Below are positions 6,701-23,866 of a stretch of 53,399 bases of DNA, in pieces. The stretch covers positions 1 to 53,399 of the forward strand of contig JALDAG010000002.1 in the NCBI GenBank assembly GCA_022729255.1, written 5' to 3'. This DNA comes from Candidatus Nanohalarchaeota archaeon. Lineage in GTDB: Archaea > Nanohalarchaeota > Nanosalinia > Nanosalinales > Nanoanaerosalinaceae. The notes beneath the pieces are model-generated. The model ran no database searches. It was given only the letters and a program-made list of their open reading frames with translations, and was not told where the DNA came from. Numbering within the stretch: the stretch's first letter is position 1; every line of letters starts with the position of its first letter. The position numbers were made by a program, and so were the translations under genes.

Positions 6701-9700
6701 TTGAAGTAGTGTTCATCACCGTAAAAACCTTCCTCGGACTCCATAACAACGTTGTATGTGTTACCTCGTTCCACAGTTGCGACCTCTTCTGTGAAATCTA
6801 TGTATCCATCTTCGTCGTTCTCATTAGTATTTTGAATCTCTTCGATTTCGAAATAACTCATATACTCGTACGAAGGATCGGCTTCAGGCCTGGAATAATC
6901 TCCCACTCTTATGTATCCGCTGTCAGATTCATCATCAGACCTTATGATGTACTCGTAACGATCTTTCTCATCAGGAACAGTATGCTTGAGGGTTTCAGTA
7001 ACGCTTTCTTCTGGTTCGAGTTGGATCAATGTTGAGTTGACCACTTCTCCATCGAATAACAGTTCCAATTCCTGTTCGCCCTCAACGTCTCCCGTATTGA
7101 AAACCTCGAAATCCACTTCAAGTGTTTCGGAAACATTTAGAGGTCCGTTGTCACCTATTATAGATACTTCGAAAATATCAGGGTTTATAACATCGATTAG
7201 CTGGGATTCGGAATCATCAGAAGTGGTTATCTCCTCTATGTAATTTCCAACTTCGACATCTGATGTGTTGTAAGAGAAGCTAGTGGTGATGGAGTCTCCG
7301 GGTCCTAGAGAAATCGTTTCAGTATCTATTTGTTCCCCGTCGAAATAGTATCTCACGGTATCTGAAGCAGGTGCTTCACCTGTGTTCGTTATAGTTGCAG
7401 AAGCATAAGCATATTCTCCCTTCACGACTTCATCCATGGTCTCCATTTCAGTTATAATAAATTCGCTGTCAACTATCTCCACCGAAAAGTCCTGAGCTTG
7501 ACCCTCAAGATCTTCAAGATAAGGGTCATCTATGTAAGATGAAGCATCCACGAAAGCTCTCATACGGGTATCTCCCAGCTCAGCGTCCTCATCAACCAGA
7601 AAGGAAGAGGTCACATCGCAAGTTCCAGCACAGTCCTCAAGGTATATAGGGTCGTTGAAATCTATGTTTTGATCCCAGTCGAAGAAAAGCGTCAAATGGT
7701 GATCACCCCATCCTGGAGCATCATCCGTTGTGATGGTTATATCATATGTTTCGCCTCTTGCAAGGACAGCTTTTTCACCTATAACACCTTCTGTGTAGTC
7801 TATATAAATTGAATCTTCATCTTCTGGCTCTATCTCATTGCTGATTTCTTCCAATTCAAGATAAGATATGGTGCCATCGTCGTCACCAGCAGGAATATCA
7901 TAAGTACCTACCTGAACTGATACAGAGTCATAACTGTCTTCCGTCTCCACAGTTATATCGTAGACGTCTTCAGGATCGCCTGTGGTATCATAATCAAAGT
8001 TGAACGTTTGTTGGTCTCCTCCATCTAATATCACGTCCTCCTCAACATCCTCGATATTTCCATCGTAAAAAAAGTACACGTCTTTTTCGGCTTCTGCATC
8101 CCCCAAGTTTTCTACATCAACCTCCACAGTAATAACATCTCCTGGATCAATATCTGGAGGAGAAATGCCTGTTATATCGACGTGGTAATATGCTTCATCA
8201 CCGATAAGAACAGTTTCGGTGTCGGATTCGTCTTCTGATTCAACTGTGACATCTCTGTAACCTCCATCTTCTTCACTGGTAGTATAATTGAACTCGATGT
8301 ACTCCTGTTCTCCTCCTTCAAGCTCCAAACTTTGGGAACCTTCAAGAGAACCTTCAAAGAAGAAATCTATTGATTGTTCTTCTAAAAGACCTCCGATATT
8401 CTCCACCGAAGCGTTCACAGACAAAATGTCGCCAGGATCTGTCTCACTGGTATTCATGATTTCCACTTCGAAATAAGGAGCGTCTCCTATAACAACAGAG
8501 GTCGAATCCATATCATCATCCGTTGATATGTTCACCCTGTAGTCGCCATCAAGATCATCAACTTCTTTGGTGAAAAAGAAGGATTCCGTCTCTCCAGCAT
8601 CTATACCGGCCCTGTCTTCAGGTATTGTTTCTTCCAGACTGTGATTGAAATAAAAATCGATTTCCTGCTCTCCGTATATATCACCGGTGTTTTCTATTAC
8701 CGCTTCAACCTCCAACTCTCCTTCCTCGACAGGAGAATTAGTGATTATATCTGAGACCTCAAAATACATGTATTCGACTATTATAGGTCTTTCAAGCTGT
8801 TCAGAGCTGGTTTCCACACGGTGCTCGTACTCGCCTCTTTCCTCATCGACTTCATCATATACAAGTGTGACGGTTTCTTCCTCGTCTGGCCCTATTGTTA
8901 CGGTATCTGAATCCACTTCATGATCGTTGAAATAATAAAATATTTCTTCTGAACCCTCATAGGATCCATCGTTTTGGAGAGTTACTTCGACCTCCAGAGA
9001 TGTATATTTCTCAACTTCATTTGGAGAGTCGAAAGAAGACATTGTTATATCTGCTACCTGTTCTATCACTTCTCCATCTTCACCACTCTCTCCCATCTGA
9101 GAACCGCTTCCCCCGGATCCTCCTGAAACAGAAAGATCTCCTGAATCTTCAAAACTGGAAGTTGTCAACTCTATTATTCCTCCGTCTCCTCCATCTCCTC
9201 CTATACCTGACGATCCTCCTGCAGGACCTCCTGATCCTCCTGATCCTCCTCTACCACCTTCAGCCATAACTTCTCCAAAGATGTTTAGTTCAAAATCCGC
9301 AACTATATTTATGTTTCCTGCATCTCCTCCTTCTCCTCCGTCTCCCCCATCCCTGTTACCTCCAGCATCTCCTCCGTCTCCTCCGTCTCCTCCATCCGAA
9401 GAAACTGTTCCATATATGTTTACCTCTTCTGCAACAAAATCTATATTGTATCCGTTTTCTCCATTTCCTCCAGGTCCTTCGTCATCGTGATCATCACCCT
9501 CCTCTCCAGATCCGTCTAAGTATCCTGAATCAGTGACTTCTATGTATTCAGCTTCTATGTTTACTCCTTCAGGGCATACATCAACTTCTCCATCGATAAA
9601 AACTTCGTCGTATTGAGTTATATCGTCACAAATTTCATCTCCATCTCCATAAGTGACTTGTGAACTAACAGAATTAGATAACGATACCAAAAGAGCAAGG

Positions 9701-9738
9701 GCTATCAAAAGTTTCACAAGGCTGGAGAATTTTGCCAT
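3766..9738 (-). CDS. Large secreted acidic surface/adhesin protein (Gly-rich region, many CARDB-like Ig repeats, three GEVED-like domains)
   Basis: Signal peptide; GGDGG repeats; repeated 'V.N.G...G' CARDB-like units; three 'DW....F...LG.TR.R.....G...D[FY]' modules. Confidence 0.8.
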   Translation of the reverse strand: MAKFSSLVKLLIALALLVSLSNSVSSQVTYGDGDEICDDITQYDEVFIDGEVDVCPEGVNIEAEYIEVTDSGYLDGSGEEGDDHDDEGPGGNGENGYNIDFVAEEVNIYGTVSSDGGDGGDGGDAGGNRDGGDGGEGGDAGNINIVADFELNIFGEVMAEGGRGGSGGSGGPAGGSSGIGGDGGDGGIIELTTSSFEDSGDLSVSGGSGGSGSQMGESGEDGEVIEQVADITMSSFDSPNEVEKYTSLEVEVTLQNDGSYEGSEEIFYYFNDHEVDSDTVTIGPDEEETVTLVYDEVDEERGEYEHRVETSSEQLERPIIVEYMYFEVSDIITNSPVEEGELEVEAVIENTGDIYGEQEIDFYFNHSLEETIPEDRAGIDAGETESFFFTKEVDDLDGDYRVNISTDDDMDSTSVVIGDAPYFEVEIMNTSETDPGDILSVNASVENIGGLLEEQSIDFFFEGSLEGSQSLELEGGEQEYIEFNYTTSEEDGGYRDVTVESEDESDTETVLIGDEAYYHVDITGISPPDIDPGDVITVEVDVENLGDAEAEKDVYFFYDGNIEDVEEDVILDGGDQQTFNFDYDTTGDPEDVYDITVETEDSYDSVSVQVGTYDIPAGDDDGTISYLELEEISNEIEPEDEDSIYIDYTEGVIGEKAVLARGETYDITITTDDAPGWGDHHLTLFFDWDQNIDFNDPIYLEDCAGTCDVTSSFLVDEDAELGDTRMRAFVDASSYIDDPYLEDLEGQAQDFSVEIVDSEFIITEMETMDEVVKGEYAYASATITNTGEAPASDTVRYYFDGEQIDTETISLGPGDSITTSFSYNTSDVEVGNYIEEITTSDDSESQLIDVINPDIFEVSIIGDNGPLNVSETLEVDFEVFNTGDVEGEQELELLFDGEVVNSTLIQLEPEESVTETLKHTVPDEKDRYEYIIRSDDESDSGYIRVGDYSRPEADPSYEYMSYFEIEEIQNTNENDEDGYIDFTEEVATVERGNTYNVVMESEEGFYGDEHYFNVFGDWEGNMEFEESQNIGSCTTEGDGCQVTGTLTIPEDAELGETRLRSILRYDQYHDDPDEGGFFGQVHDYTIDIQDDNFEVIDFDSPSEILEGETIEPEITVENTGQLSGTAEITYMFDGGTVSEETETLDPGDTYTMTPEYTVEEEGGYYYTHTAETQDDSYERDIFVGNMDFLVDITSTNSPVANYLEIEAEIENVGTMDGEQDIEFYFDNDLDDVEEDFLVQEDETRTLEFTKDVSTEDDGTYEVNVSSDDDYDTANIVKGQEPFFEVDITGDNSPIDEEGTLEIDFDVENVGDIEDEQDILLIFNNEEVERIENIYLESGDVYSDTFFYDTTEEPGEYEAVVESEDSSDSTDVLIGELGYFEVDIIDSNNPDPGEMLEVTAEINNTGDLEGTQLTEMEFDNNIVDEEEITLDGGAVTTHTYNFDTEEYDEGIYDVYIHTDDESSHTKVQIGGYEIAVGDTEYEHITYFELTDISHSSGDDGGYADFTYDEIGQKAFVMPGGSYDVTMESQSEFSGDDHYFNVFGDWNQNIEFDQGSHDIGSCETGSDGCQVTGTLTIPEDAELGETRLRAFLMFDEYQTDPYNDDFYGEAEDYTVEVVEPYFEIINFEAPDTAVQDGTIYPNTTVENTGGVTGEQQIIYKVEGDTKDLVTLELEPGGSETVEFEYTVEEEPGEYEQKAETEDDYESRNLEVIEPPTVELNNLYFEDRIVENQDTSIIAETTNTGDLTAENIEINLSIDEYGEEWEFLSYSTESVTLDSGETKNVSFTEKLVQGPNRVTAEPGSDEEEALTELVDVSSYNIFYGGSEKTVRLGADDSEFNTWLRQEPEGNILFADIDSDISFSQLEAPTETGFLETIDDALGITNHNDSVEDLWDEEGDGTPDKTDCFIISDDEVCEVPVVNSTITEDFQTGILYDTSQGEPYDGSQDLVFITEVNPNTEGEHGIYDYEAKVPANIRTLSGETESVEIFTDLN
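4985..6627. repeat. Intragenic direct repeats between two GEVED modules
   Basis: 62 bp at 4985-5046 and 6566-6627 (2 mismatches); identical 27 bp at 5107-5133 and 6685-6711. Confidence 0.85.
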
Positions 9739-9946: not shown

Positions 9947-10912
9947 ATGGAAAAGAACAACTACTTGTTCATATTTGCTGCGGTCTTAATGGTATTGATA
10001 GCTGTGCTTGCCACAAACTTATTTGAAAGAGAAGAGACGAATCCTGATGTGATGGCTTCTTTTTACCCGTTTTATGATATAACCCAGCGAATTTCAGGAG
10101 AGGAAATCGATGTTGAGCCATTGGTACCTCCTGGAACAGAACCACACTCTTTCGAGCTTTCTCCAAGTGACAGGATGAAAGTGGAAGACGCTAAAGTTTT
10201 CATTTCCACAGGTGTTTCCTTCGAGAGATGGGAGGAAGAGGTAACAGACAGTGTTGATACCAGGATAGTTGATTCTTCGAAGGGCATAGAACTCTTAGAG
10301 GCTGAACATGAGCACAGTCATGACCATGATGAGGGAAATGATCACCATGACCATGATGAGGGAAATGATCACCATGACCATGAGCATTATGGAGATTATG
10401 ATACCCATTACTGGGTTTCACCTACCAATGCGAAGATTATAGCTGAAAACATAAAAGAAGCTCTCATAGAAGAATTTCCAGAGAAAAGCGAAGAAATTGA
10501 AAGAAATGCCGAGCAATTTATGGGAGAGATGGATAGGCTGGACGAAGAATTCGAAACAAGGCTTTCAGGATGTGACAAAGATACGATTGTGACAGCTCAT
10601 GCTGCTTTCGCATACCTTGGGAACGACTATGATTTCAGTCAAGTGCCTATACACGGGATATCTCCGATGTCCGAGCCAACTCCAAGCCAGATAGAAGAGA
10701 TAATTAAGGTCACCGAGGAAAAAGAACTCCAATACATATTTTACGAGGAACTGGTTGATCCAAGGGTTGCGGAAAATATAGCAGAGGAATCAGGTGTTGA
10801 AACACTTGTTCTCAACCCTGTAGCGGGTTCTGTGGATGGAGCTGAAGGATATGTTCCTATAATGGAGAGAAATCTTGGAAACCTTGAAAGAGCTTTGGAG
10901 TGTTCGCCATAA
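9947..10912 (+). CDS. znuA: Zn/Mn ABC transporter substrate-binding protein
   Basis: EPHSFE, His-rich loop, DTHYW, HAAFAY; first gene of an ABC triplet. Confidence 0.92.
   Translation: MEKNNYLFIFAAVLMVLIAVLATNLFEREETNPDVMASFYPFYDITQRISGEEIDVEPLVPPGTEPHSFELSPSDRMKVEDAKVFISTGVSFERWEEEVTDSVDTRIVDSSKGIELLEAEHEHSHDHDEGNDHHDHDEGNDHHDHEHYGDYDTHYWVSPTNAKIIAENIKEALIEEFPEKSEEIERNAEQFMGEMDRLDEEFETRLSGCDKDTIVTAHAAFAYLGNDYDFSQVPIHGISPMSEPTPSQIEEIIKVTEEKELQYIFYEELVDPRVAENIAEESGVETLVLNPVAGSVDGAEGYVPIMERNLGNLERALECSP
10319..10383 (+). repeat. 27-bp tandem repeat (about 2.4 copies) encoding HDHDEGNDH
   Basis: catgaccatgatgagggaaatgatcac exact x2, then an 11-bp partial copy. Confidence 0.9.
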
Positions 10913-11628
10913 TGAAAGCGGTAGAAGTTAAAAATGTTTCATTTAGCTTTGGAGATAATACCATATTAGAAAACGTTTCTATGGGTTTAGAGGAAGGTGA
11001 TTTTGTTGGGTTGGTAGGACCCAATGGTTCGGGTAAAACCACGCTTGCAAAAAACATTTTAGGACTTCTTGAACCTGATAGTGGAAGCATAGAGGTATAT
11101 GGAAGGTCTCCGAAAAAAGCACAGAAGGAGGGTTTGATAGGTTATGTGCCTCAGCACTACAAGAGAGATCATCACTTTCCAGCTACTGTTGAGGAACTCC
11201 TAAGAATTTCTTTGATGTTTGACGGAGTTAATCAGTCCTATGAACTACTGGAGGAGCTTGGGATAAAAAATCATCTTACCGAGAAATTCGAATCGCTTTC
11301 AGGAGGCCAACAACAAAAGGTTGTTACAGCTTTATCTCTATTAAAAGATCCTGAGATACTTGTGCTGGACGAACCATCGGTTGGAGTAGATATAAAGTCT
11401 CAAAAAGCGTTTTACAGTTATCTTGACCGGATAAGGGAGGACAGAGGCATAACCATCTTGATGATAAGTCATGATATAGGAGCTATATCAAGACACACTG
11501 ATGAAGCCATTTATTTGAACAAGTCTGTTTGCTGTCAGGCAGATACAAAAGAGTTACCAGGGATTCTTGAAGAGACCTATGGAGATGATTTTAGGCATTA
11601 CAGCCATGGAGGTCATGACCATGATTGA
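10912..11628 (+). CDS. znuC: Zn/Mn ABC transporter ATPase
   Basis: GPNGSGKT, LSGGQ, LDEP; TAATG overlap with znuA. Confidence 0.92.
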   Translation: MKAVEVKNVSFSFGDNTILENVSMGLEEGDFVGLVGPNGSGKTTLAKNILGLLEPDSGSIEVYGRSPKKAQKEGLIGYVPQHYKRDHHFPATVEELLRISLMFDGVNQSYELLEELGIKNHLTEKFESLSGGQQQKVVTALSLLKDPEILVLDEPSVGVDIKSQKAFYSYLDRIREDRGITILMISHDIGAISRHTDEAIYLNKSVCCQADTKELPGILEETYGDDFRHYSHGGHDHD

Positions 11629-12430
11629 GATATTTGTGGATTTTTTCCAGTACGATTTCATGTGGAAAGCGCTTTTGATAGGTCTTATGATATCTGTTTC
11701 TACGTCTATACTGGGTATATACTTGGTTCTTGAGAAAATGTCTCTTATAGGAGATGGACTGGCCCACGCATCTTTCGGAGGTGTTGCACTAGGATTTCTC
11801 TTAAATATAAACCCTGTGTGGACAGCTTTTCTGGTTGCAGGTCTAGGATCATTCGGTATAAACTACCTTGTATCAAGAAAAAAGACACACGGTGATGCAG
11901 CAATAGCACTCGCACTTTCTACAGGAATGGCGATAGCAGTTGTTATTATAGGTATTGTTGGAGGTTTCAATGCTGATCTTTTCTCATATCTTTTTGGAAG
12001 CATACTTTCCATTAGCTTTATGGATATAGGTTTTACTGCTCTTGTTACTTTTTCTGTTGTCTGCTTCTTCTTTCTAAATTATGATTCCATTATTCAGATG
12101 AATTTCAACGAAGAACTTGCAAAGCTTCACGGAGTTAAAACTTCAAGAGTTAGGTATCTATTAACCTTTTTTGTGGCTTTATCGGTTGTGACAGCGGTGA
12201 GAGCTGTCGGCATACTTTTAGTAACAGGTCTTATCGTTATTCCACCATTAACCGCTTTACAGATCGCTAAATCATACAAAAACGCAGTAATTCTTTCAGT
12301 AGGTGTGAGCGTTTCAGGGATGACTTTAGGGATATTCTCGGCCTACGCTTTAGATATACCTCCCAGCGGAGCTATCATAATCACTTTGATCTTTTTGTTC
12401 GTTTTTTCAACGTTTCTATCCGATGATTAG
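11621..12430 (+). CDS. znuB: Zn/Mn ABC transporter permease
   Basis: GDGLAH, YLFGSIL, VGILLV motifs; multiple TM helices. Confidence 0.92.
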   Translation: MIEIFVDFFQYDFMWKALLIGLMISVSTSILGIYLVLEKMSLIGDGLAHASFGGVALGFLLNINPVWTAFLVAGLGSFGINYLVSRKKTHGDAAIALALSTGMAIAVVIIGIVGGFNADLFSYLFGSILSISFMDIGFTALVTFSVVCFFFLNYDSIIQMNFNEELAKLHGVKTSRVRYLLTFFVALSVVTAVRAVGILLVTGLIVIPPLTALQIAKSYKNAVILSVGVSVSGMTLGIFSAYALDIPPSGAIIITLIFLFVFSTFLSDD

Positions 12431-12664
12431 AAAGAATCTTCTTTAAAGGAGGGATGACCAGTCAAGAGATATTTTGAGTTTTCAAAAAGTATCTTGGTTC
12501 TATATAGCTACATACAACTTATTTATTACAATAGACCTACCTCTTTTTTTTGAATCGTCTTTTTCTGTTCGGATTTGCGAGGAGATTTTTTTCCAGAAAA
12601 AATATTATTTGAAAAAGAGCATCTGTTTTATAAGATTTTATTTTTTTCCATATATGTGGTATCA

Positions 12665-12850
12665 ATGGTTGGTGATGAATTAGCTGAAAGGCTTAACAAG
12701 CTTAAAGAAGATTTTGTGGAAAAAGAAGGTAGAGAAGCATATGAAGAGATGGAAAAAAGATATATTGATGGTGATATAGACAACAAAATAGATTTTAAAG
12801 CAGCTAAAAAATTAATAGAGGAATTGGAAAGCGAAATGAACAGTAAATAA
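12665..12850 (+). CDS. Small charged helical hypothetical protein (61 aa)
   Basis: ATG at 12665, protein-like composition, followed by a T-tract. Confidence 0.55.
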   Translation: MVGDELAERLNKLKEDFVEKEGREAYEEMEKRYIDGDIDNKIDFKAAKKLIEELESEMNSK

Positions 12851-12867
12851 CCCTTTTCTTTTTTTTG
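12851..12867 (+). terminator. Oligo-T archaeal terminator candidate
   Basis: cccttttctttttttt directly after the stop codon. Confidence 0.4.
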
Positions 12868-12887
12868 ATGTAATATTTTATTAAATT

Positions 12888-13361
12888 ATGATATCATTAG
12901 ATGAGAGTATGGGGGAAGACATTTTAGAAGCGCTCGAGAAAATATCAAAAATGATAGGCAGAGATTTTGAATGGATGATTATAGGTAGTTGTAACATGTT
13001 TTTACAAGGTATAGATGTTATACCTAACGATATAGATATAGTAGCCCATGAAGGAAAATTTGAAGCCATAAAGAAGACGTTTTCAGAACACATAAAAAGG
13101 GATATTCACATATATGAGGGAACTTTAGGAAAATATCCCAGAATTATCGTTGAGATAGAGGGTGTAGAAGTAGAAATCATGGGAGAGGATGATAACGGAG
13201 TATATTTCAAAAACATCTCTGAAGGAACTCTGGAACTAGACATCAGAGGAATGAGATTGAAATGTTTGGAGCTTGAAAAAGAAGCCGAGGTATATGAGAT
13301 GTTGGGTCAAGAAAAAAGGGTAGAACAGATAGACGAATTTTTGAGAGATAAAATGGCATAA
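12888..13361 (+). CDS. Minimal Pol-beta-superfamily nucleotidyltransferase
   Basis: hhGS..h.LQG...P.DIDI motif; true start may be 12909. Confidence 0.7.
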   Translation: MISLDESMGEDILEALEKISKMIGRDFEWMIIGSCNMFLQGIDVIPNDIDIVAHEGKFEAIKKTFSEHIKRDIHIYEGTLGKYPRIIVEIEGVEVEIMGEDDNGVYFKNISEGTLELDIRGMRLKCLELEKEAEVYEMLGQEKRVEQIDEFLRDKMA

Positions 13362-13373
13362 GACTGTCGTGCA

Positions 13374-13634
13374 TTATCCCAGAAATCGGTAAAGGATAGC
13401 GATCAAAAAAATCAGGAAACCAAGTACAAGAAGTCTTATCTCGAGCACATATTCTTCTTCGTCCAATTCTCGGATGCTGAAACTGAAACTATCTTCTTCT
13501 GTTGAGGATATACCATTTTCCTCCTCAACGCTTATTTCAGCTCCGGAACTATCGCTTTGAAACCTTAAAAAAAGTCCTAAAGAGTTTGAAAGGAGTAAAG
13601 AAGAGATCAAAGCAAAACAGATTATTTTTTTCAT
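13374..13634 (-). CDS. Small membrane protein (signal peptide plus C-terminal TM)
   Basis: MKKIICFALISSLLL... N-terminus; the longer ORF-track start overlaps tRNA-Gly, so it was trimmed. Confidence 0.55.
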   Translation of the reverse strand: MKKIICFALISSLLLSNSLGLFLRFQSDSSGAEISVEEENGISSTEEDSFSFSIRELDEEEYVLEIRLLVLGFLIFLIAILYRFLG

Positions 13635-13651
13635 TTTTAACACTTGAGGGA

Positions 13652-13723
13652 TGCGCCGACCGGGAGTTGAACCCGGGTCGCCAGCATGGGAAGCTGGAGT
13701 CTTAGCCACTGGACCATCAGCGC
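13652..13723 (-). tRNA. tRNA-Gly(CCC)
   Basis: GCGCTGA..TCGGCGC acceptor stem, CCAGC-TTCCCAT-GCTGG anticodon arm, CCGGG-TTCAACT-CCCGG T arm; CCA not encoded. Confidence 0.95.
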
Positions 13724-13777: not shown

Positions 13778-14752
13778 ATGTCGACAGAGAAAACTTTGAA
13801 AAAATTCAAAACCGTAGAAGGCACATTCGAGCTAACTAAACATGTTTTCGGACAGGGCTCACCCACATGCGGTGTTATTTCAGGGGTTCATGGAGACGAA
13901 TTTCTTGCCAGAAAGGTAGCGGAACACCTAAAAGAGAATTTGGACAACCGCGTATTTAATGGAACTGTGCATATAGTATCAGATGCAAACATATTTGCAT
14001 GTGATGAGGGAAGAAGGATGACTCCTTGGCCCAGGTTTGAGAAAAACGAGGGAGAGATGAGAGATCTTAACAGGTGTTTTAAAACAGCTTTTGAAAACAT
14101 GAAATCAAAAAATAAGCTTAACACCACTCAGTTGATAGCAAGAGAGATATTAAGGGATTTCAAGAAATTTGATTTTGTCCTGGACCTACATAATGCTACT
14201 TCTGGAGGCTTTAAGGTAGATCAAACTCGTCTCAAGGTTTCAAACGGAATCCCTCAAGAGACAATAATCGAGATGGAGAAGATGGCTAAAAACAGCGGCA
14301 CAGATTTTGTGATGAGATCAGCACCTTCATGGTTAGGAGGAACTTTATCAAGCATTTTACCTCTTTTAAAAGTTCCTGTAATCACATTTGAAGTTTCTGG
14401 AGGTTCGGGCCGCGATAAAAAAGACTTTGAAAATTATATGGGTTATGTGGAGAACGTACTAAAATTTAAAGAGGTGTTGGATGGAGAAAACGTGTTTAAA
14501 GAACCATATTTTTTCGATCAGATAATACCAGTGTATTCTGACAGTTATGGTCATCTAAAACTTTTTGTAGAGCTGGGCGAGTTTATATATCCCGGTAAAA
14601 CCATAGCATTGATCCTTGATGATGAAGGGAACGCTGTTGAAGAAATATATTCGGAACATGAAGGTTTTATAGAGTCCATAACTGACTCTAAAGAAGTCAT
14701 TGAAGGTTCAAGGATTGTGAATATCGGTTCGAACGGTGAAGGTTTTAAATAA
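13778..14752 (+). CDS. Succinylglutamate desuccinylase/aspartoacylase-family (M14) Zn deacylase/peptidase
   Basis: GVHGDE, DLNRCF, DLHN, TFEV and a C-terminal biotinyl-lipoyl-like barrel. Confidence 0.88.
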   Translation: MSTEKTLKKFKTVEGTFELTKHVFGQGSPTCGVISGVHGDEFLARKVAEHLKENLDNRVFNGTVHIVSDANIFACDEGRRMTPWPRFEKNEGEMRDLNRCFKTAFENMKSKNKLNTTQLIAREILRDFKKFDFVLDLHNATSGGFKVDQTRLKVSNGIPQETIIEMEKMAKNSGTDFVMRSAPSWLGGTLSSILPLLKVPVITFEVSGGSGRDKKDFENYMGYVENVLKFKEVLDGENVFKEPYFFDQIIPVYSDSYGHLKLFVELGEFIYPGKTIALILDDEGNAVEEIYSEHEGFIESITDSKEVIEGSRIVNIGSNGEGFK

Positions 14753-14775
14753 ACTGGTTTTCTAATTTAGAGGAT

Positions 14776-15798
14776 ATGGAGAAAATAGTTCCTGACATCG
14801 TATCTTCAAGCCTTAAACGAGTTGAGCTCCCTGAAACCATTTGTATAGATGGGGAAAGAAGAGAGGTCTCTGAAGGAGATATAGTTGCTGTAAAAATTGT
14901 TTCTGAGGGAGGTAGTTATGATAAAGTTGAGGCTATTGACGGTGAAACCCATAAACTTGAAAATGGTATGACCATAATAGGAGTGCTCTGCGAGAGAAAA
15001 GCTGTTAAAGGTTTTGTGGGTCTAATGCCTGATGAGGCTAAAAGAGGAGACGTCTTGGATTTTATAGGTGGAGCTGGAGCTATAGGTAAGTGTGTATCAT
15101 CCTTTGAAGAACTTGGTGAACCATTTTCCGTCGAGGTCTTAGGTTTTCTTGTTAAGGATGGAGAGAAGATGAATGTTAAAGATTTTTCTATAGATATGGA
15201 GACAAAACTCAATGGCTGCTCGCCCATAGTAATGGTTTCTGGTACCAGGATGGATTCTGGAAAGACTACACTTGCGTCTAATTTGATAAAAGAACTTTCT
15301 GAAAGAGGTTTTTCTGTAGGCGCTGCCAAGTTAACAGGATTCACCAGACAGCGTGATAGGATAAAGATGGAAGAGTACGGTGCAGATGTCAGCATGGATT
15401 TCGTTGATGCAGGTCTTTTATCATCTTCAAATAGTTCAGAAGATGTTTTGTGTGCTGCAAAAGGTGTTCTAAATACTGTATCATCTAAAGGAGTTGATGT
15501 TATTGTTGTTGAATTAGGAGGAGGTATAATAGGTTATGATAACGTTTTTGAGGTTTTAACTGAAAGAGAAATTGTTGAAAATACTGTATACAATATAGTA
15601 ACTGTGATGGATCCCGTGGCAGCTTTTGGAGCTAAAAGAATGTTAGGTGAGAAAGACGTCTCTATAGATGTTTTTTCAGGTCCTGCGACAGATACAGAAA
15701 CCGGAGAAAGCCTTATAAAAACTTTCACTGAAGTCGATGCGTTAAATGGAAGAAAAAAATATGTTAAAATAGCTGACAAGGTAGAAGAAAACCTTTGA
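14776..15798 (+). CDS. DUF1611-like P-loop protein
   Basis: GTRMDSGKTT, AAKLTG..R.RD, DF.DAG..S, VELGGGI motifs. Confidence 0.72.
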   Translation: MEKIVPDIVSSSLKRVELPETICIDGERREVSEGDIVAVKIVSEGGSYDKVEAIDGETHKLENGMTIIGVLCERKAVKGFVGLMPDEAKRGDVLDFIGGAGAIGKCVSSFEELGEPFSVEVLGFLVKDGEKMNVKDFSIDMETKLNGCSPIVMVSGTRMDSGKTTLASNLIKELSERGFSVGAAKLTGFTRQRDRIKMEEYGADVSMDFVDAGLLSSSNSSEDVLCAAKGVLNTVSSKGVDVIVVELGGGIIGYDNVFEVLTEREIVENTVYNIVTVMDPVAAFGAKRMLGEKDVSIDVFSGPATDTETGESLIKTFTEVDALNGRKKYVKIADKVEENL

Positions 15799-15800
15799 AA

Positions 15801-16700
15801 TCAGGCCTTCGAATCCGATGTCTTATTCTTTAGAGCGTTGCTGTAGATATGTTCCATCAATATCTCTGGTATGTTCTCTCCAATAATATCTTCCAGATCA
15901 GCTATACCCGGAGAAAAGTTTATCTCTCCGATGTAAAAACCACCATTCTCAGATTCTATTATGTCTATTCCGCAAAAGTCAAATCCACAGAGCTTCGCGG
16001 CCTGAACTGCAGCCTCTTTCATCTCTTCAGTCGGTTCGTACTTCTCTCTTTTACCTCCCTGAGATATGTTTGACCTGAACTCATCTTTTCCTCCAATTCT
16101 CTTGTATGTGAAAGTTTTATCTCCCACAACAATCATCCTTATATCTTCCCCAGGGTTCTCTATGTATTCCTGTAGGCATATATCTTGTTCGAAGAGTGTC
16201 AGTGTATCTATTATAGGTGTAAGATCTGATTTTTCGTTCGCTTTCATTACACCCTTGCCACCATAACCAGATATTATCTTGATTATCACGGGATATCCCA
16301 GTTCCTCGGCAGCCCTTTGAGTTTCCTGTGTTGAAAGGGTGTAACTTGTATTGGGGACAGGCAGATTCCCGTCTTCCATAACTTTTATCATGTAGAACTT
16401 GTTCGATGCGATTGTTAGAGAGTCTACATCTACCTGTGTGTAAACTCCTTCGGTCTCTAGTATCTCTGGTATGTTCTCTCCAAAAAGCATCTCGTCACCG
16501 AAAACTCTGAGAAACACACAGTCGAAATCTGTGAGGTCGGTGGTCTTGTACATGAGCTGTACTCCGTTACCATTGTAAACCACTCTCAAACATTCCATTG
16601 GTACGGCTAGAACCGTATCAAAAAACTTTTCAGCTTCTTCCATCAATATATGATGTTGGTCGGATTCTTTACCATATATTATCGCACATCTAATCGTCAT
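15801..16700 (-). CDS. rimK: RimK/LysX-family ATP-grasp ligase (motifs intact)
   Basis: NKF, PVIIK..SGYGGKGV, QEYI, DIR, FRSNISQGG, GIDII, EINFSPG. Confidence 0.85.
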   Translation of the reverse strand: MTIRCAIIYGKESDQHHILMEEAEKFFDTVLAVPMECLRVVYNGNGVQLMYKTTDLTDFDCVFLRVFGDEMLFGENIPEILETEGVYTQVDVDSLTIASNKFYMIKVMEDGNLPVPNTSYTLSTQETQRAAEELGYPVIIKIISGYGGKGVMKANEKSDLTPIIDTLTLFEQDICLQEYIENPGEDIRMIVVGDKTFTYKRIGGKDEFRSNISQGGKREKYEPTEEMKEAAVQAAKLCGFDFCGIDIIESENGGFYIGEINFSPGIADLEDIIGENIPEILMEHIYSNALKNKTSDSKA

Positions 16701-17502
16701 CACCCTTTAATACCTTTGCCACCTTACTGAAAACGCTTTTTCCACTTATCTTCTTGAACATTTCCAGGTTCAACTCTGGTTTCATCTGCACAATAGTGTC
16801 ATCTACTATTCTAGCCCGACATATATCAGCACCTATGGATTCAGCGGCTTTCCTTATTTCTTCTTTCTGATCCGCTGATATGGTATGATAAGTTCTTGTC
16901 ACGTCTTTATCCTCCCATTCACCCTCTAGTTTTAGAGATATTATCGTTCCATCGATATAGAGAATGTCGAAGATAGCTCCATCTATATATTCCTGTGTTA
17001 AAAGATAGTTTTTACCGTACTCAATTCTATCGGCAAACTTTTGAAGTTCATCAGCATCATCTATCTTTGCGATATCTTTTCTATTGAAATTTTCGTACAT
17101 CTTGGCCACCGCGGGAAATTTAATGTTTTTTTCCACGGAAGTTAGGCCTTTTTCACTCGGTACTGCTATAGTGTTAGGTATTTTTGCTCCTTTCTCCTTC
17201 AGTACTTTGAAGAGGTAGTGTTTTTTTGTTAGTATGTGGAATGTGTTGGGTTTAAGATTAGCGTTAACGCTTTCCTCCTGAAGAGCTTCAAGCAGAACCC
17301 TTGAATATATCGATGCTTTTGGTTCTGGATCAAGGTATACCGCGTCAAAATCTTCTTTGATATTTCTGTCTTTCAGCTTGACCTTTGGATCTGTACCGGA
17401 ATTTATCGAAATATCTGCAAGTGAGTGGTATTCAACATTTTCGAACTCTCCTTCAAAATCTTCAAATTTATCGGGTTTATTCGTCAGCACTAGTAAATTC
17501 AT
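16690..17502 (-). CDS. Degenerate RimK-like ATP-grasp protein
   Basis: K..LF..L...G..IPNT, FPAVAK and QEYIDG are retained; the Gly loop and ExN motif are missing. Start taken at the ATG of MNLLV. Confidence 0.7.
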   Translation of the reverse strand: MNLLVLTNKPDKFEDFEGEFENVEYHSLADISINSGTDPKVKLKDRNIKEDFDAVYLDPEPKASIYSRVLLEALQEESVNANLKPNTFHILTKKHYLFKVLKEKGAKIPNTIAVPSEKGLTSVEKNIKFPAVAKMYENFNRKDIAKIDDADELQKFADRIEYGKNYLLTQEYIDGAIFDILYIDGTIISLKLEGEWEDKDVTRTYHTISADQKEEIRKAAESIGADICRARIVDDTIVQMKPELNLEMFKKISGKSVFSKVAKVLKGDDD

Positions 17503-19066
17503 CGAGCTTCCTTTCACCTCCTTTTTTTGAATCGGCTTTCCACACCCTTCTAACGTTTTCCGAGTTCCATTTCTCCAAGAAATCATCCGCTGATTCCGGG
17601 AAAACGTTTTTGAGTATTCTTCCACTTCTCATTATTTTTCCAAGCTGGAGCTCCAAGTTTTTCGATAGTTTTTCGTAGAAACCGATATCTGAGTAGATAA
17701 GGTTGTTATCTATCCTCCAGTAAGCCCTTGTATCTTTTGGTGCGAGTACAATGTATCCTCTTTCTCTTCCCTCGAACTCTGACATAGCTTCTCTTAGCTC
17801 CTTGTCATCCACGTAGTATACTCCTCCTGTTCCTGTATGTGAACTTGGATCGATTATCAGTATTTCTTTACCTTCCACACCCATGGCAAGACTGTAATGG
17901 CCTTTGGATGCGTTTGGGAAAAGCACAGGTTTTGCAAAGTTTGCAATTATTAGTGCTCCGTCATTGAACCATGTTTTGAACTCCTCGCTCAGATCAGTTA
18001 TATTCCTATTTTCCACAAATGCTCCTCTGACACCCTTGCTGGTAAGCTGTTCAACAGCATTTATGAGTTCAGGAGGTTCAACTCCCTTGTTGAGCTCGGT
18101 TCCAGAAACCTTTGCTAATCTCTCCTGACTTATACTGTACCCAAAAACTGCGAGAGCCATCTCAGCTGATGCTGGACCACAGTAAGAAGGTTCCTGAGCA
18201 ACAAAATAGTTCTTTATATCTTCAAGTGTTTCTATATCTGCTTTAACCCTCTTGAACATTATGTTTTTGTCCATGAGGTTCTTGTTCGGCGTTACCATGA
18301 AATAACCTTTGTCGGTGGCTATGGTGGTTGAGAACGTGGATATATCCCTTATTTCTCCGGATTCACCGTCTATCTTCACGTTGTTACCTCTTTTAATCAC
18401 ATCAGATGTTCTGAGATAAATCTGGCCAGCATAATTTTGAACAAGGTTTTTAAAACCAAAGAAAGCAAGGAAACCTAGTACTACAACCACGGTATAAGAA
18501 GCAGCTCTTAAAGTGGTTTCAATTATCTGTGTGGGCACTCCTAACTGTGTTATAGCGATTTCCAAAGCTACAAGGTAAAGAAAAACTTTTAAAGTCTTGA
18601 AAAATATATCTATACCTTGTGAAGCAAATCCCATGTCTTTTGCATACTTTTTAAGGCCTAAAGTCTCAAGAAAACTTTTTAGAAAGTTTATCAATATGTT
18701 TATGAGTATAAAACCCAGTATGAATATCAAGGTTGCGGAAAGTATGGAAGGTATGTAGTTCAAAACCTGTGTCAACAACTGATTAGTGGCGCCCGCATTT
18801 ATGTATAGAAGGGCGATAACAATTGTGACAACAGAAATCGTGTACTCTATGTATTTGTAAGGGGTTCTCGTTTTTTCTCTTTTTATCTCTTCAACACTTT
18901 CACCTTTTCTGTACTTTGAAATTTTCTTTGCAACTTTCACAAGTACCTGCGCCATCAAATAACCTAACAACAATATGAGAAGCGTTATCGCTATCTGAAC
19001 TATAATAGGCTGTTCTGCTCCTAGAGCTACTTGATCTAAATTAATTGATCGTAAAAAATCTATCAT
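17477..19066 (-). CDS. MscS-type channel fused to a C39/phytochelatin-synthase-like cysteine protease domain
   Basis: About 5 TM helices, then GFKNLVQNY..G.NVKIDGESGEI..I...ST...PN; then QEPSYCGPAS, GHYS and IIDP. Confidence 0.82.
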   Translation of the reverse strand: MIDFLRSINLDQVALGAEQPIIVQIAITLLILLLGYLMAQVLVKVAKKISKYRKGESVEEIKREKTRTPYKYIEYTISVVTIVIALLYINAGATNQLLTQVLNYIPSILSATLIFILGFILINILINFLKSFLETLGLKKYAKDMGFASQGIDIFFKTLKVFLYLVALEIAITQLGVPTQIIETTLRAASYTVVVVLGFLAFFGFKNLVQNYAGQIYLRTSDVIKRGNNVKIDGESGEIRDISTFSTTIATDKGYFMVTPNKNLMDKNIMFKRVKADIETLEDIKNYFVAQEPSYCGPASAEMALAVFGYSISQERLAKVSGTELNKGVEPPELINAVEQLTSKGVRGAFVENRNITDLSEEFKTWFNDGALIIANFAKPVLFPNASKGHYSLAMGVEGKEILIIDPSSHTGTGGVYYVDDKELREAMSEFEGRERGYIVLAPKDTRAYWRIDNNLIYSDIGFYEKLSKNLELQLGKIMRSGRILKNVFPESADDFLEKWNSENVRRVWKADSKKGGERKLDEFTSADE

Positions 19067-19123: not shown

Positions 19124-20329
19124 CTACTTGGTTATTCCATATCCGACAAGACGCCATCTAGATCCTATCCTCCTTGATATGGCAACTCTTTCTCCTTTTT
19201 CGACACAAACAGGTCTGTTGAGCGTTACTTTAACATCACTGCCTGCCTGAGTAACAACACCTGATGTCTTCGCTGTTCCAACGTTTAGAAGGAGTGGTTC
19301 TTTCTCTTTGATGTTTTCAACTTTTTCAACGTCTTCTGAACCTACAGCTCTATCTAACAGCGTTACTTTCATCTCTAATTTATTTTTTACATCCGGTAGC
19401 TTGTCTTTTTTACCCAAAATGTTTCCGGCTAAGTTATCTGATTTTGTGAGAGCAGGATCAAGTTCTGTCTCCACTGCTGATAATCCTCCTGGCTTTGCAA
19501 CCTGAATTGATTCTCCTCCACTGATAATATTGGTTATAGTTGTGTTTATAGGCTTCCATTTCTTACCGTCTTTTCTTCCTGGCCTTATCTCTATCTCATC
19601 TCCTTTTTTGAGATGTCCTTTTATCACTGATCCTCCTAAAACACCTCCTTTCAAATTCTTTATGGATGTTTCGGGTTTGTTTATATCAAAGCTTCTGGCA
19701 ACTAACATCTGAGGATCTGCTTCCTCATCCCTTTCTGGTGTGGGTATAGTTTCCTGAATAGCCTCTATGAGCTTGTTTATATTTGTACCGTGCTGTGCTG
19801 ATACCGGGATTATGGGAGCATCTTCTGCTGTGCTTCCCTTTATGAACTGTTTTATCTGCTTGTAGTTCTTTATAGCGTCCTCCTTTGAAACAAGATCTAT
19901 CTTGTTCTGAACTATAACTATATTTTCTACGCCTGCTATGTTCAGGGCTTCGAGGTGTTCTCTTGTCTGAGGTTGAGGACATTTTTCTGCAGCAGATATA
20001 ATTAAAATAGCTCCGTCCATGATGCTTGCTCCAGAAAGGACGTTTGCCATAAGTGTCTCGTGACCTGGTGCATCAACTAAAGAAACTGTTCTCAGCGTAT
20101 CCGTTTCTCCACCGCACTCGCATTCTTCATCTACGGTATATTCATCACAATCCTTGCATCTCCTTAGAACCACATCGGCATAACCTATACGGATTGTGAT
20201 ACCTCTTCTAAGTTCTTCGGAATGTTTATCAGTCCATTTACCTGAAAGAGCTCTTGTTAAAGTGGTTTTTCCGTGATCTACGTGGCCCACAAGCCCTATG
20301 TTTACTTCAGGTAACAGGTTTTTTGACAT
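19124..20329 (-). CDS. eif2g: Translation initiation factor 2 gamma subunit
   Basis: [19 protein letters not shown], zinc knuckle, DAPGHE, QNKID, WRLVGYG. Confidence 0.97.
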
Positions 20330-20734: not shown

Positions 20735-20869
20735 ATATTACACCTCTGCTCAGTACTAGAACCTTTCTCGGTTTTTTCCCGGAGCATTCAATTGTTTCCT
20801 TTACAAACTTTTTAAATCATTACTTTTTTCCCGTTGGTTTATTATATGGATTTAACTTATTATTTTGTT

Positions 20870-21724
20870 ATGGCTTTTGTAGGAGAGGTCCTTGACGAGG
20901 CATGGAAAGCACTTATGTCCTTCTTCGAGTTAGGAGGTTTTTCACAGGCCGACCTGATATCGATAGTTATACTTCTTTTGGTTGGAATAATCGGTGGAAA
21001 AGTGATTTCCGAACTGTTGACAAGGCTCATGAAGATGTCGGGTGTAGATGAATTAGCTGTCAAGGTTGACATACAGAAATTTTTGAGGAAGATAGGTTTC
21101 AGCGGCTCTTTTTCGGAGTTTTCCGGCGCCTTATTAAAGTATTTTATATATCTTATAGTCTTTTTAGGTGTTTTTAATATACTGGGCTTCGAAGCTTTCA
21201 TGAGATATCTGCAGGCCATCCTTGGATACATACCAAACATGGTGTTGGCTTTTGCCATATTTTTCGTAGGTTTCGTTGTTTTTTCACATGTTGAAGAGAT
21301 TATAATCGGTTTTTACAGACAGAAAGGTCTTTTAAACATCATAGATGATGTTGAACCTACCACTCCTTCTTATGTGGTCTTGGCAAGATTTATCAGGGTT
21401 TTCGGCGTTTCAGCGGTTCTCATAATAGTGCTAGCTATCTTGGGGGTTGATACAATAATCGTTTACATGATGACTGCGGCTCTGCTTATAGGGTTCGTGA
21501 CGATGTTTATTGTAGGTTTCAGAGACATATTAAGGAATCTAGGTATTTCGATCTATATGCAGCACTCAGGAACTTTTCTAGCAGGTAAAAAGGTTTCTAT
21601 CGATGGAATGGAGGGTAAAATAGTTCATGTTACGCCTCTATACACTAAGATTAAACATGGTGAAGGGTTCGTTTACATCCCTAACTCCGAACTTCTTGGA
21701 AAAGATGTTGAGTACGGGGAGTGA
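20870..21724 (+). CDS. CmpX-like TM-helix/MscS-family membrane protein
   Basis: About 5 TM helices with YIPN, and a C-terminal MscS beta domain (G.KVSIDG.EG.I...IPNS); start uncertain (20834-20870). Confidence 0.75.
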   Translation: MAFVGEVLDEAWKALMSFFELGGFSQADLISIVILLLVGIIGGKVISELLTRLMKMSGVDELAVKVDIQKFLRKIGFSGSFSEFSGALLKYFIYLIVFLGVFNILGFEAFMRYLQAILGYIPNMVLAFAIFFVGFVVFSHVEEIIIGFYRQKGLLNIIDDVEPTTPSYVVLARFIRVFGVSAVLIIVLAILGVDTIIVYMMTAALLIGFVTMFIVGFRDILRNLGISIYMQHSGTFLAGKKVSIDGMEGKIVHVTPLYTKIKHGEGFVYIPNSELLGKDVEYGE

Positions 21725-21730
21725 TCAGTC

Positions 21731-23170
21731 TTGGATAAGGTAGTAGCTTACTACGTTGGACTTTTCCTGAGGATTTTTTCGGGTCTTCTTCTTTTACCCG
21801 TCGCTGTCGGCCTTTTTTTCGGGGAGAGCTTTATCGTGCTTGAGGGATTTATAATAGCATCCTTTGTAGCCATACTTTCCGGAGTATTTCTAATATTTGG
21901 TGAAAATGGTAAACCTGATGCTGTTCAGGGTATGCTTGCTGCTGTTATAGGTTGGATATGTGCTGTGGCGATTGGAAGCATACCTTTCATGCATGTGCTG
22001 GATATGGGTTTTGTGAATGCTTTTTTCGAATCCATGAGCGGGTTTACTACCACGGGCATGTCTCTAATAAGGTCTATGGAGTATGCACCTAAATCTTTAG
22101 TTTTTTGGAGGGCTTTTATACAGTGGATAGGAGGTTTAGGAATACTTACTTTTTTTGTAGCCGTCATAGTAAAAGTTGGTGGAGCGGCAACAGCATTAGC
22201 TACTGCCGAGGCTGATAAGACAGATTCCGGAAAAATCAGGCCTTCGGTGATTAACTCAATAAAATCTATGTGGTATGTATATATAGTTTTTACATTATTA
22301 CAGATATCTTTACTCTATTTAGGAGGTCTTAAACCCTTTGAAGCTCTCAACTATGCTCTTACAACACTTCCTACAGGAGGTTACTCTCATACAATAGGAG
22401 GTATCGCGGGATTTGGATCTGTCTTCGTTAACTCTGTGTTCGTGATTTTCATGTTTATTGGAGGCACAAACTTTCTTCTGCTCTACAGGTTGACAAAAGG
22501 AAATTTAAGTGCTTTTCTGGAAGATTTTGAGTTCAAGCTTTACGTCAAGATAATTCTAGTTGTTTTTACGATAATATCTCTAGACATTTTTATTAATCAA
22601 GGAGGTTCCATAGTTTCAGCTGCTGGAGATTCTATTTTCCACACGGTATCCGTGGCCAGTTCAACAGGGTTTGAACTTAGAAGTATTTCAAGCTTTCCAG
22701 AAGTATCTAAAATGCTACTGATAGGCCTTATGTTTGTTGGAGGATGTCTTGGATCTACTACAGGAGGAGTAAAGATGTACCGTCTTGGGATACTTCTTAA
22801 AATAGTATGGAGGGAGGTCAAGAGCTTTACTCTTCCCAGGTCAGCACTTAACTTTGTATCGGAGGGAGGCGAAAAACTGAAAAATGATGTCGTGTTCAGA
22901 ATAGTAGCCATATTCTTTCTCTGGTTCTCTATAGTATTTATCGGAGGTCTTATAACGGTTATGTTTTCAGGTCTAGGCATTTTAGAATCTATCCAAGGAA
23001 TTTTATCATCAATTTCGTCTATGGGTCCTTTATTGATGTCTCAAGAGACTCTTATAGCTTTACCACCTGGCATCAAATTGTTATGGAGTTTTATCATGCT
23101 TGCAGGAAGGCTGGAACTTTTGCCTATACTTGTTTTTCTCAATGTTGAGATACTTAAGAGGTTTTCATGA
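21731..23170 (+). CDS. trkH: Trk K+ uptake membrane subunit
   Basis: FESMSGFTTTG, QWIGGLG, GSTTGGVK, GRLE. Confidence 0.95.
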   Translation: MDKVVAYYVGLFLRIFSGLLLLPVAVGLFFGESFIVLEGFIIASFVAILSGVFLIFGENGKPDAVQGMLAAVIGWICAVAIGSIPFMHVLDMGFVNAFFESMSGFTTTGMSLIRSMEYAPKSLVFWRAFIQWIGGLGILTFFVAVIVKVGGAATALATAEADKTDSGKIRPSVINSIKSMWYVYIVFTLLQISLLYLGGLKPFEALNYALTTLPTGGYSHTIGGIAGFGSVFVNSVFVIFMFIGGTNFLLLYRLTKGNLSAFLEDFEFKLYVKIILVVFTIISLDIFINQGGSIVSAAGDSIFHTVSVASSTGFELRSISSFPEVSKMLLIGLMFVGGCLGSTTGGVKMYRLGILLKIVWREVKSFTLPRSALNFVSEGGEKLKNDVVFRIVAIFFLWFSIVFIGGLITVMFSGLGILESIQGILSSISSMGPLLMSQETLIALPPGIKLLWSFIMLAGRLELLPILVFLNVEILKRFS

Positions 23171-23215
23171 TTTTCCAAAACTTGTTTAAGTCGCGGCTAT
23201 CAGTAATGATATAGT

Positions 23216-23866
23216 ATGTATGTGATAGTTGCAGGAGTTAACACCATATCGAAAAGACTTATAGAGGATCTTGTGGAAAGTCATGATGTGGTAGTTGTGG
23301 AGGAGGATCAATCGAACGCTGAAAGTATCTACCATACAGGCGCAACAGTTATAAATGGATCTCCTTCTAATCTCTCTGTTTTAGTTGATGCAGGAGTTTC
23401 AAGAGCTGATGTACTTGTATCGACTCTCAGCCAACCCAACAGGAACATGGTGATATCTATGATTGGTAAAAAGTATGGTGTACCTAAAATAGTTGCAAGG
23501 GTCGAAGACAAGAGCTATGTGGATATATATAACATGTTAGAGGTAAATACTGTGGAATACACGGATATCGTGTATTCAGAATTTTTGTCTGTGATAGAAC
23601 ATCCATCAATGAGAAAAATAGCTAATGTTGGTTCGGATAAAGAGATAATAGAAGTTTTTGTCTCAGAAAAATCTGTTTTTGAAAACTTGAGGATAGATGA
23701 AATAAATGAGCTGGGCAGGTTTCCCGGTGAAAAAGCAGATATAGTCTCTATATTGCGTGAGGACGAAGTAATGGAACCAAAGGATACATTAAGGTTGAAA
23801 AAAGGAGATTCAATGATAATAATCGCTGAAAAAGGTGTGAGAAAAGATATCAGCAATATTTTCTAA
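23216..23866 (+). CDS. trkA: Trk K+ uptake regulatory subunit (RCK_N + RCK_C)
   Basis: TrkA architecture adjacent to trkH; the GxGxxG motif is degenerate. Confidence 0.85.
   Translation: MYVIVAGVNTISKRLIEDLVESHDVVVVEEDQSNAESIYHTGATVINGSPSNLSVLVDAGVSRADVLVSTLSQPNRNMVISMIGKKYGVPKIVARVEDKSYVDIYNMLEVNTVEYTDIVYSEFLSVIEHPSMRKIANVGSDKEIIEVFVSEKSVFENLRIDEINELGRFPGEKADIVSILREDEVMEPKDTLRLKKGDSMIIIAEKGVRKDISNIF

Follow-up and report, generated by a model that had tools for sequence, protein, structure and literature searches.

An undescribed amide ligase-peptidase locus with a three-gene core and a variable slot in Nanohalarchaeota

Do five neighbouring genes of a Candidatus Nanohalarchaeota archaeon (assembly GCA_022729255.1, contig JALDAG010000002.1) belong to one system, and what might such a system build or cut? 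The window, that is the whole stretch of 53,399 nucleotides that was analysed, carries these genes at positions 13778 to 19066. They encode an MscS-type protein fused to a peptidase domain (17477..19066, minus strand), a RimK-fold pseudo-ligase of 270 amino acids termed RimK2 (16690..17502, minus strand), the RimK-family ATP-grasp ligase RimK1 (15801..16700, minus strand), a P-loop protein of 340 amino acids related to DUF1611 (14776..15798, plus strand) and an AstE/AspA-type M14 zinc amidohydrolase (13778..14752, plus strand). The locus is a real, conserved and undescribed form of an amide ligase-peptidase locus. The first-pass annotation of this DNA knew of no description of the arrangement in archaea, and none was found in the main texts of open-licence papers; in the available parts of nanohaloarchaeal genome papers, one of them 10.1101/2022.05.20.492899, no mention of the locus was seen.

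A conserved core and a variable slot

The five open reading frames, both overlaps and the 2-nt gap between convergent genes were all found as first annotated. The end of the fusion gene overlaps the start of the RimK2 gene at positions 17477-17502, and the sequence GGAGGTGA ends 11 nt upstream of the RimK2 ATG. The RimK2 and RimK1 genes overlap at positions 16690-16700 if RimK1 starts with the ATG at 16700, or at 16690-16703 with the alternative GTG start at 16703, and the stop codons of the RimK1 and P-loop genes converge with a gap of 2 nt (15798/15801). Comparison with the nearest genome yielded ratios of non-synonymous to synonymous substitution rates (dN/dS) of 0.02-0.11 for all five genes, which corresponds to purifying selection. 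This selection, along with the phylum-wide retention of the gene order, demonstrates that the arrangement is not due to chance. A scan for promoters and terminators, which models bacterial promoters only, gave no excess over shuffled sequences.

The distribution of the five proteins was determined in a sample of 61 related genomes, with an E-value below 1e-50 defining a strong match. Strong matches to the fusion were present in 56 genomes, to RimK2 and RimK1 in 57 each, and to the P-loop protein and the M14 enzyme in 16 each. Gene maps of 57 genomes displayed the order fusion-RimK2-RimK1 in 56 cases, the contig of the 57th stopping before the fusion, and throughout the phylum the fusion was detected in 64 of 70 genomes. 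The system consists of a three-gene core and a variable slot, not of five fixed genes. Since these genomes of about 1 Mb specify almost no amino acid synthesis and yet nearly all of them retain the locus, its role is probably a central one.

The slot is located between RimK1 and the PIN-rpoE' gene pair and was mapped in 57 loci. The P-loop gene occupies it in 16 loci, eight of which also contain M14, in six cases in tandem as in the window. Additional slot types comprise M14 with a third RimK-like ligase, mostly accompanied by MATCAP (7 loci), GCS2 with or without a YheC/D-like ATP-grasp protein (11 loci) and one to three YheC/D genes with or without MATCAP (21 loci); in the remaining two loci the slot lies beyond the contig end. 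Up to three tandem YheC/D-like ATP-grasp genes were seen in the slots of loci L075 and L085. All slot families of known chemistry, which is every one but that of the P-loop protein, make or break amide bonds. The notion of five genes forming a fixed unit was thus given up, as M14 and the P-loop gene occur together in only 8 of the 57 loci and unrelated ligases or peptidases fill the slot elsewhere.

The genes nevertheless co-occur in related genomes, as the first-pass annotation had expected. The P-loop gene is convergent on RimK1 in all 16 genomes that possess it, with stop-to-stop distances of -26 to +11 nt. A survey of Aenigmarchaeota provided 8 strong matches among 301 sampled genomes; in records of this name the core occupies another chromosomal site, close to genes for elongation factors, with YheC/D and the P-loop gene coming after it. 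Because the P-loop gene also follows the core at this different site, it travels with the core.

Predicted properties of the core and slot proteins

The fusion protein is composed of MscS-type membrane helices and a beta-domain (residues ~20-270; PF05552 and PF00924), a papain-fold peptidase (residues 275-445; PF13529) and a conserved helical tail. MscS structures were matched in fold searches, and among 52 fusion members PF00924 was detected in 51 and PF05552 in 41, with the MscS cage domain PF21082 in none of the 52; the peptidase begins directly after the beta-domain. Since the beta-domain of MscS is cytoplasmic, the peptidase is likely to be cytoplasmic as well. The predicted architecture is that of a channel fold with an enzyme in place of the cage, and gating by tension is possible. 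No comparable MscS-peptidase fusion outside its own family turned up in the searches made, and an MscS fold carrying an enzyme instead of the cage would represent a novel means of linking chemistry to a channel. The window encodes two further MscS-type proteins: a complete one with a cage domain (788-1633) and one that is followed by TrkH and TrkA just past the S6e gene (20834-23866), TrkH being located beside S6e in most relatives.

The putative peptidase site of the window protein is complete (Q291, C296, H390 and D406). The best fold match of the peptidase domain was the phage lyase domain of the endo-isopeptidase PeiR (Z 19.1, root-mean-square deviation (rmsd) 2.0 over 147 residues), followed by the glutathione-cleaving Alr0975 (Z 16.7), which was the top Foldseek match, and by the peptidase domains of the C39 transporters PCAT1 and ComA (Z 16.4). 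The phytochelatin synthase family PF05023 was not matched by the window fusion and was matched by 9 of the 52 members at E <= 0.01. Both C296 and H390 are present in 37 of 65 aligned fusions; in the other 28 the Cys or the His is missing.

RimK1 scored 171.6 bits against TIGR00768, above the curated cut-off of 143.4 bits, and is thereby a member of the RimK family. Its ATP-grasp motifs (K102, K142, the glycine loop, D187, R189, R210-S211-N212, D247, E260 and N262) are invariant in 56 aligned rows, and its nearest structures are bacterial RimK proteins (E 2e-43), ahead of ArgX/LysX (3e-26). RimK2 matched TIGR00768 only weakly (E 6e-6), yet it aligned over its full length to the RimK1 profile with a probability of 99.6. 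The glycine loop, RSN and E-x-N motifs are absent from RimK2, and 57 rows share only four invariant columns. In the six of eight close pairs whose dS is unsaturated, the dN/dS of RimK2 was 0.02-0.20, so the gene is not decaying; judged from its motifs, RimK2 is a catalytically dead RimK-fold copy under purifying selection. RimK1 and RimK2 are the only clear RimK-like genes in this genome. A second, divergent RimK1 copy is located beside M14 in two genomes (L056, 4848-5771; L063, 297-1205), both copies forming a branch of their own. In one locus of the Aenigmarchaeota group (L251, genome G130) the peptidase of the core is dead and RimK1 has also lost RSN and E-x-N; no slot gene was matched nearby.

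The scores of RimK1 also bear on the view that the ligase performs housekeeping chemistry next to unrelated neighbours, be it LysW-type synthesis, glutamylation of F420, methanopterin or folate, or formation of a glutathione-like thiol. RimK1 scored 157.7 bits against the MptN model and 133.7 bits against LysX/ArgX, and a thiol peptide would be in keeping with the combination of GCS2, a GshB-like ATP-grasp protein and a phytochelatin-synthase-like fold in the GCS2 variants. All equivalog scores are nevertheless far below the cut-offs (MptN 350, LysX/ArgX 275.6, CofF 75.9 versus 300 and the S6-ligase RimK 101 versus 331 bits), and LysW, CofE, Mch and GCS2 gave no match each in this 91% complete genome, with positive controls. 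No conserved LysW-like acceptor tail was seen on the locus proteins. The exchange of slot genes and the covariation described below are, moreover, left unexplained, which makes the housekeeping view very improbable; the LysW/ArgX, CofF or MptN type of product named in the first-pass annotation as a test of its proposal was accordingly not supported.

The structure model of the P-loop protein is confident (predicted local distance difference test (pLDDT) score 92). Its Walker A motif at residues 158-165 is invariant, with the full GKTT in all 16 sequences. The best folds were the DUF1611/DgcN structures 2G0T (Z 17.7, rmsd 2.8 over 177 residues), 2OBN (16.5) and 7XRJ (15.5), the matches reaching into the N-terminal half of the protein. 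The nearest Atlas clusters are bacterial and some are named DUF1611, as are three of eight plasmid matches. The protein missed the Pfam cut-off of PF07755 (13.3 versus 25 bits), and a PDB sequence search with its profile returned nothing below E 0.4. The label 'DUF1611-like' proposed earlier consequently stands by fold and by named bacterial relatives and fails by Pfam family. The link to D-glutamate metabolism of the DgcN type that had been drawn with it was abandoned: the DgcN-DgcA pathway lacks a racemase here, and the only enolase-superfamily match in the genome (PF13378) has enolase motifs. Given its invariant Walker A, the protein could equally well be an ATP-dependent ligase or an acetyltransferase.

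Among plasmid-borne relatives of the P-loop protein, the best one, 27% identical over 87% of the length, is encoded between two ATP-grasp genes on the Priestia megaterium plasmid NZ_CP085446.1 (L262, 3727-12415), in a cluster that also contains phosphoenolpyruvate mutase, thiamine enzymes and an M20 peptidase and looks like a phosphonopeptide cluster. In three alphaproteobacterial loci (L263-L265) relatives named DUF1611 or dethiobiotin synthase precede the gene of an ATP-binding cassette (ABC) transporter, two of them following an alpha/beta hydrolase gene. The second slot protein of the window, the M14 enzyme, scored 73.3 bits against PF24827 (cut-off 25 bits), and the residues H38, E41, H138 and E205, which include its zinc ligands, are conserved in 15 rows.

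Covariation of the peptidase site with the slot and a possible peptide cycle

The state of the peptidase site was compared with slot content across the 65 aligned fusions, four of which were omitted as their slots lie off the contig. The Cys-His pair is intact in all 34 loci with a P-loop or GCS2 gene and in one of 27 loci without. In a tree calculated after removal of the motif columns, the peptidase state changed six times, and five to six of six independent pairs agree with the association and none opposes it (sign test, p 0.031-0.0625). MATCAP occupies the slot in 19 of 25 loci with a dead peptidase and in none of 35 with an active one, one further row being omitted owing to a contig end. 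As a different MATCAP type was detected outside the locus in several P-loop genomes by genome-wide search, this exclusion is local. The covariation pattern suggests a peptidase substrate that is made by either GCS2 or the P-loop protein, which would then be equivalent to each other. It thereby offers testable functions: the DUF1611-related family may replace GCS2, and prokaryotic MATCAP proteins may replace the cysteine peptidase.

The substrates of GCS2, DgcN and AstE/AspA enzymes are free amino acids or small amides. That the slot enzymes of known chemistry use small amides favours a cycle in which a short glutamate-rich peptide with an N-terminal cap is built and cut by core and slot enzymes at the inner face of the membrane, a reading to which we assign a probability of roughly 0.45. 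The cycle is also favoured by the amino acid metabolism of this archaeal family, which according to the available part of 10.1101/2022.05.20.492899 makes only glutamate de novo. In such a cycle the P-loop protein, or GCS2 in other lineages, would make a capped starter such as an N-acyl or gamma-glutamyl amino acid. RimK1, whose ligase motifs are seen, would then use ATP to add alpha-glutamate to the carboxylate of the starter, while being held or tuned by the dead RimK2. The channel-borne Cys-His-Asp domain, whose catalytic residues are likewise seen, may cut or transfer the bond beside the cap, a tie to the first step that rests on the covariation, and the M14 enzyme would take off the cap and free glutamate, in keeping with the chemistry of its family. 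In loci that lack the enzyme for the first step, the cysteine peptidase has decayed and the slot usually contains the carboxypeptidase MATCAP. The likely use would be a reversible glutamate store that is released or exported near the channel, possibly under control by tension. We infer the substrates, the pairing of RimK1 with RimK2, the docking on the channel, the roles of the slot enzymes and any gating. Each slot type represents a small set of soluble enzymes that is directly assayable.

Several observations weigh against this cycle. The covariation rests on only six independent contrasts, for MATCAP just three to four of six pairs agree (p 0.125), and genome G042 constitutes an exception. 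A GCS2 gene elsewhere in G042 was considered as a rescue of the rule and dropped, as this distant type is also found in genomes with a dead peptidase. M14 is missing from the slot in 8 of 16 P-loop loci; the P-loop protein is only 11-12% identical to the DUF1611 structures and also resembles dethiobiotin synthetase (BioD, Z 16.3); and C39 peptidases such as ComA fit the peptidase domain almost as well as Alr0975 (Z 16.4 versus 16.7). Furthermore, a glutamate store gives no reason for the exchange of the locus among genera that is described below.

An additional point against the cycle arose from relatives outside the halophiles. A search of 1.84 billion representatives yielded 58 fusion matches at E <= 1e-30, of which about 45 cover nearly the whole protein. 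Most of the non-acidic relatives keep Cys and His; three of ten that were looked up were named Woesearchaeota, and relatives of a non-halophile RimK2 were named Diapherotrites. RimK2 was found downstream of the fusion in only 2 of 37 loci with a visible downstream gene, a subset of 48 metagenome loci of the non-halophile type. These relatives mostly lack an adjacent RimK. The fusion thus predates salt adaptation and does not always stand in a cluster with ligases, which weakens a specifically osmotic reading. A record titled Colwellia polaris (L142) contains an archaeal fusion gene and is probably a mislabelled genome.

The slot families also parallel the tubulin tail enzymes, one slot YheC/D protein scoring above the TTL Pfam cut-off and MATCAP being present. 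This parallel belongs to a different explanation, namely the reversible editing of protein tails: an acidic C-terminus, for example on ribosomal S6e, on aIF2-gamma or on the channel, would be glutamylated by RimK1/RimK2, and the added residues would be taken off again by MATCAP, M14 or the cysteine peptidase. The S6e gene lies two genes upstream, and in 32 of 45 loci its product has Glu as the last residue, compared with 9% of 520 long open reading frames of this genome, a background that takes in non-coding frames; acidic tails are, however, common in proteins of halophiles, and the S6e of the window ends in Ser. In bacteria RimK and RimB act in this way on S6, according to the available part of PMC11957791, and the ATP-grasp protein CDC123 binds eukaryotic eIF2-gamma, as stated in the accessible part of PMC4431377. 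On the other hand, the last residue is not conserved in any core or slot protein, the core is not located beside S6e or aIF2-gamma in the Aenigmarchaeota-named records, and GCS2 and AstE/AspA indicate small substrates. Tail editing is therefore regarded as rather unlikely.

Exchange between genera and comparison with known systems

The gene for aIF2-gamma (19124..20329, minus strand) forms the constant upstream border of the locus; it is located directly upstream of the core in 48 of 57 genomes, and the remaining nine contigs end there. The aIF2-gamma tree follows genus, whereas the RimK1, RimK2 and fusion trees group by slot type (RimK1 calculated at the 'careful' setting, the others at 'quick'). 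Genus monophyly of RimK1 was rejected for g16, g27 and g12 by approximately unbiased (AU) tests (p 9e-103, 4e-12 and 6e-5), in which two paralogue rows were left out, the genera were named by the tool and the tests were picked after tree inspection. Pairs from the same genus with different slots share 81-87% identity in aIF2-gamma and 43-67% in RimK1, and pairs from different genera of one family with the same slot share 70-81% and 70-89%, respectively. Because the core trees follow slot type and not genus, the locus was likely exchanged as a block between genera, and recombination in the flanks would be the simplest reading of this exchange.

The exchange between fixed housekeeping flanks is best accounted for by a third explanation, according to which a surface peptide or polymer is exported and cut at the channel as in a peptidase-coupled transporter, with the slot setting its chemical type and viruses or hosts driving the exchange of types. 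The peptidase fold resembles the PCAT1 and ComA domains named above, and the rloABC protease of Pseudomonas is secreted and cuts polyglutamate, as reported in the available part of PMC11957051. The neighbourhood of the core, however, contains no conserved glycosyl, anchoring or ABC export gene, dN/dS is low throughout, PADLOC gave no match for any of the five proteins, and MscS-type pores are not known to let a polymer pass. Surface export is hence held to be improbable. The capped-peptide cycle can itself be extended to a DPANN peptide-code locus, in which the ligase/pseudo-ligase pair would be docked on a tension-gated channel that has a peptidase for a cage, stretch would cause the peptidase to cut and release a glutamyl peptide, and swappable slot enzymes, one of them a P-loop amide ligase of a new class replacing GCS2, would set the peptide type and be swapped between genera in the manner of serotype loci; this extension is speculative and likewise improbable.

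The M14 gene is preceded by a divergent tRNA-Gly(CCC) gene (13652..13723, minus strand), 54 nt before its ATG, and downstream of the slot this genome carries a zinc ABC-type operon together with the tRNA-Gly gene (9947-13723). PIN and rpoE', the usual downstream border, are located on a separate contig (C38), reflecting a local rearrangement that is also found in two genomes of the same genus. Positions 3766-9738 contain an open reading frame of 1990 amino acids that is very acidic and rich in repeats, with a signal-like N-terminus and a glycine-rich stretch, and probably specifies a surface protein.

Among known systems, MscS channels share the membrane helices and beta-domain of the fusion, and Alr0975, PeiR and the C39 transporter peptidases share its Cys-His-Asp papain fold; the third domain of MscS channels, PF21082, is replaced by the peptidase. 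Transglutaminase domains also possess a papain-like fold. The P-loop protein has its best folds in DUF1611/DgcN and differs from them by its low identity, the missing racemase neighbour and the invariant GKTT of Walker A. The animal cycle of N-acetylaspartylglutamate (NAAG) and beta-citrylglutamate, comprising NAT8L, RIMKLA/B, GCPII and aspartoacylase, follows the logic of the window genes: a small capped glutamyl peptide is handled by a cap enzyme, a RimK-type ligase, a peptidase and an M14 deacylase; the folds of its cap enzyme and peptidase differ, its genes are unclustered and it has no channel. Bacterial ligase-peptidase neighbourhoods of RimK, GCS2 and M14 genes were reportedly described by Iyer et al. 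in 2009.

The methylofuran ligases MyfA and MyfB, as far as the available part of PMC8141765 describes them, extend polyglutamate in turn on a small starter, but both add glutamate and the chain is built on a C1 coenzyme; this genome gave no match to Mch. The closest solved structures of RimK1 belong to RimABK of Pseudomonas and RimK of Escherichia coli, a bacterial combination of ligase and erasing peptidase that makes protein tails and free poly-alpha-glutamate (available part of PMC11957791). RimK1 lies below the S6-ligase equivalog cut-off, bacterial S6 is not archaeal S6e and, unlike in the window locus, the eraser is a retropepsin and there is no membrane anchor.

The closest described system is rloABC of Pseudomonas, which is like the window in logic and unlike it in parts. 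According to the available part of PMC11957051, a single operon specifies a membrane protein fused to an inactive transglutaminase domain, a RimK-like ATP-grasp protein and a polyglutamate-cutting peptidase, and is linked to hypo-osmotic stress. RloB comprises seven membrane helices and a periplasmic domain, in contrast to the MscS fold with a predicted cytoplasmic peptidase; RloA is a secreted aspartic protease, and neither a pseudo-ligase nor a variable slot is described for rloABC in that part of the source. Profile searches revealed no match to the retropepsin or 7-helix transglutaminase families among the five locus proteins. The answer for the archaeal locus may also bear on the substrate of bacterial rloABC.

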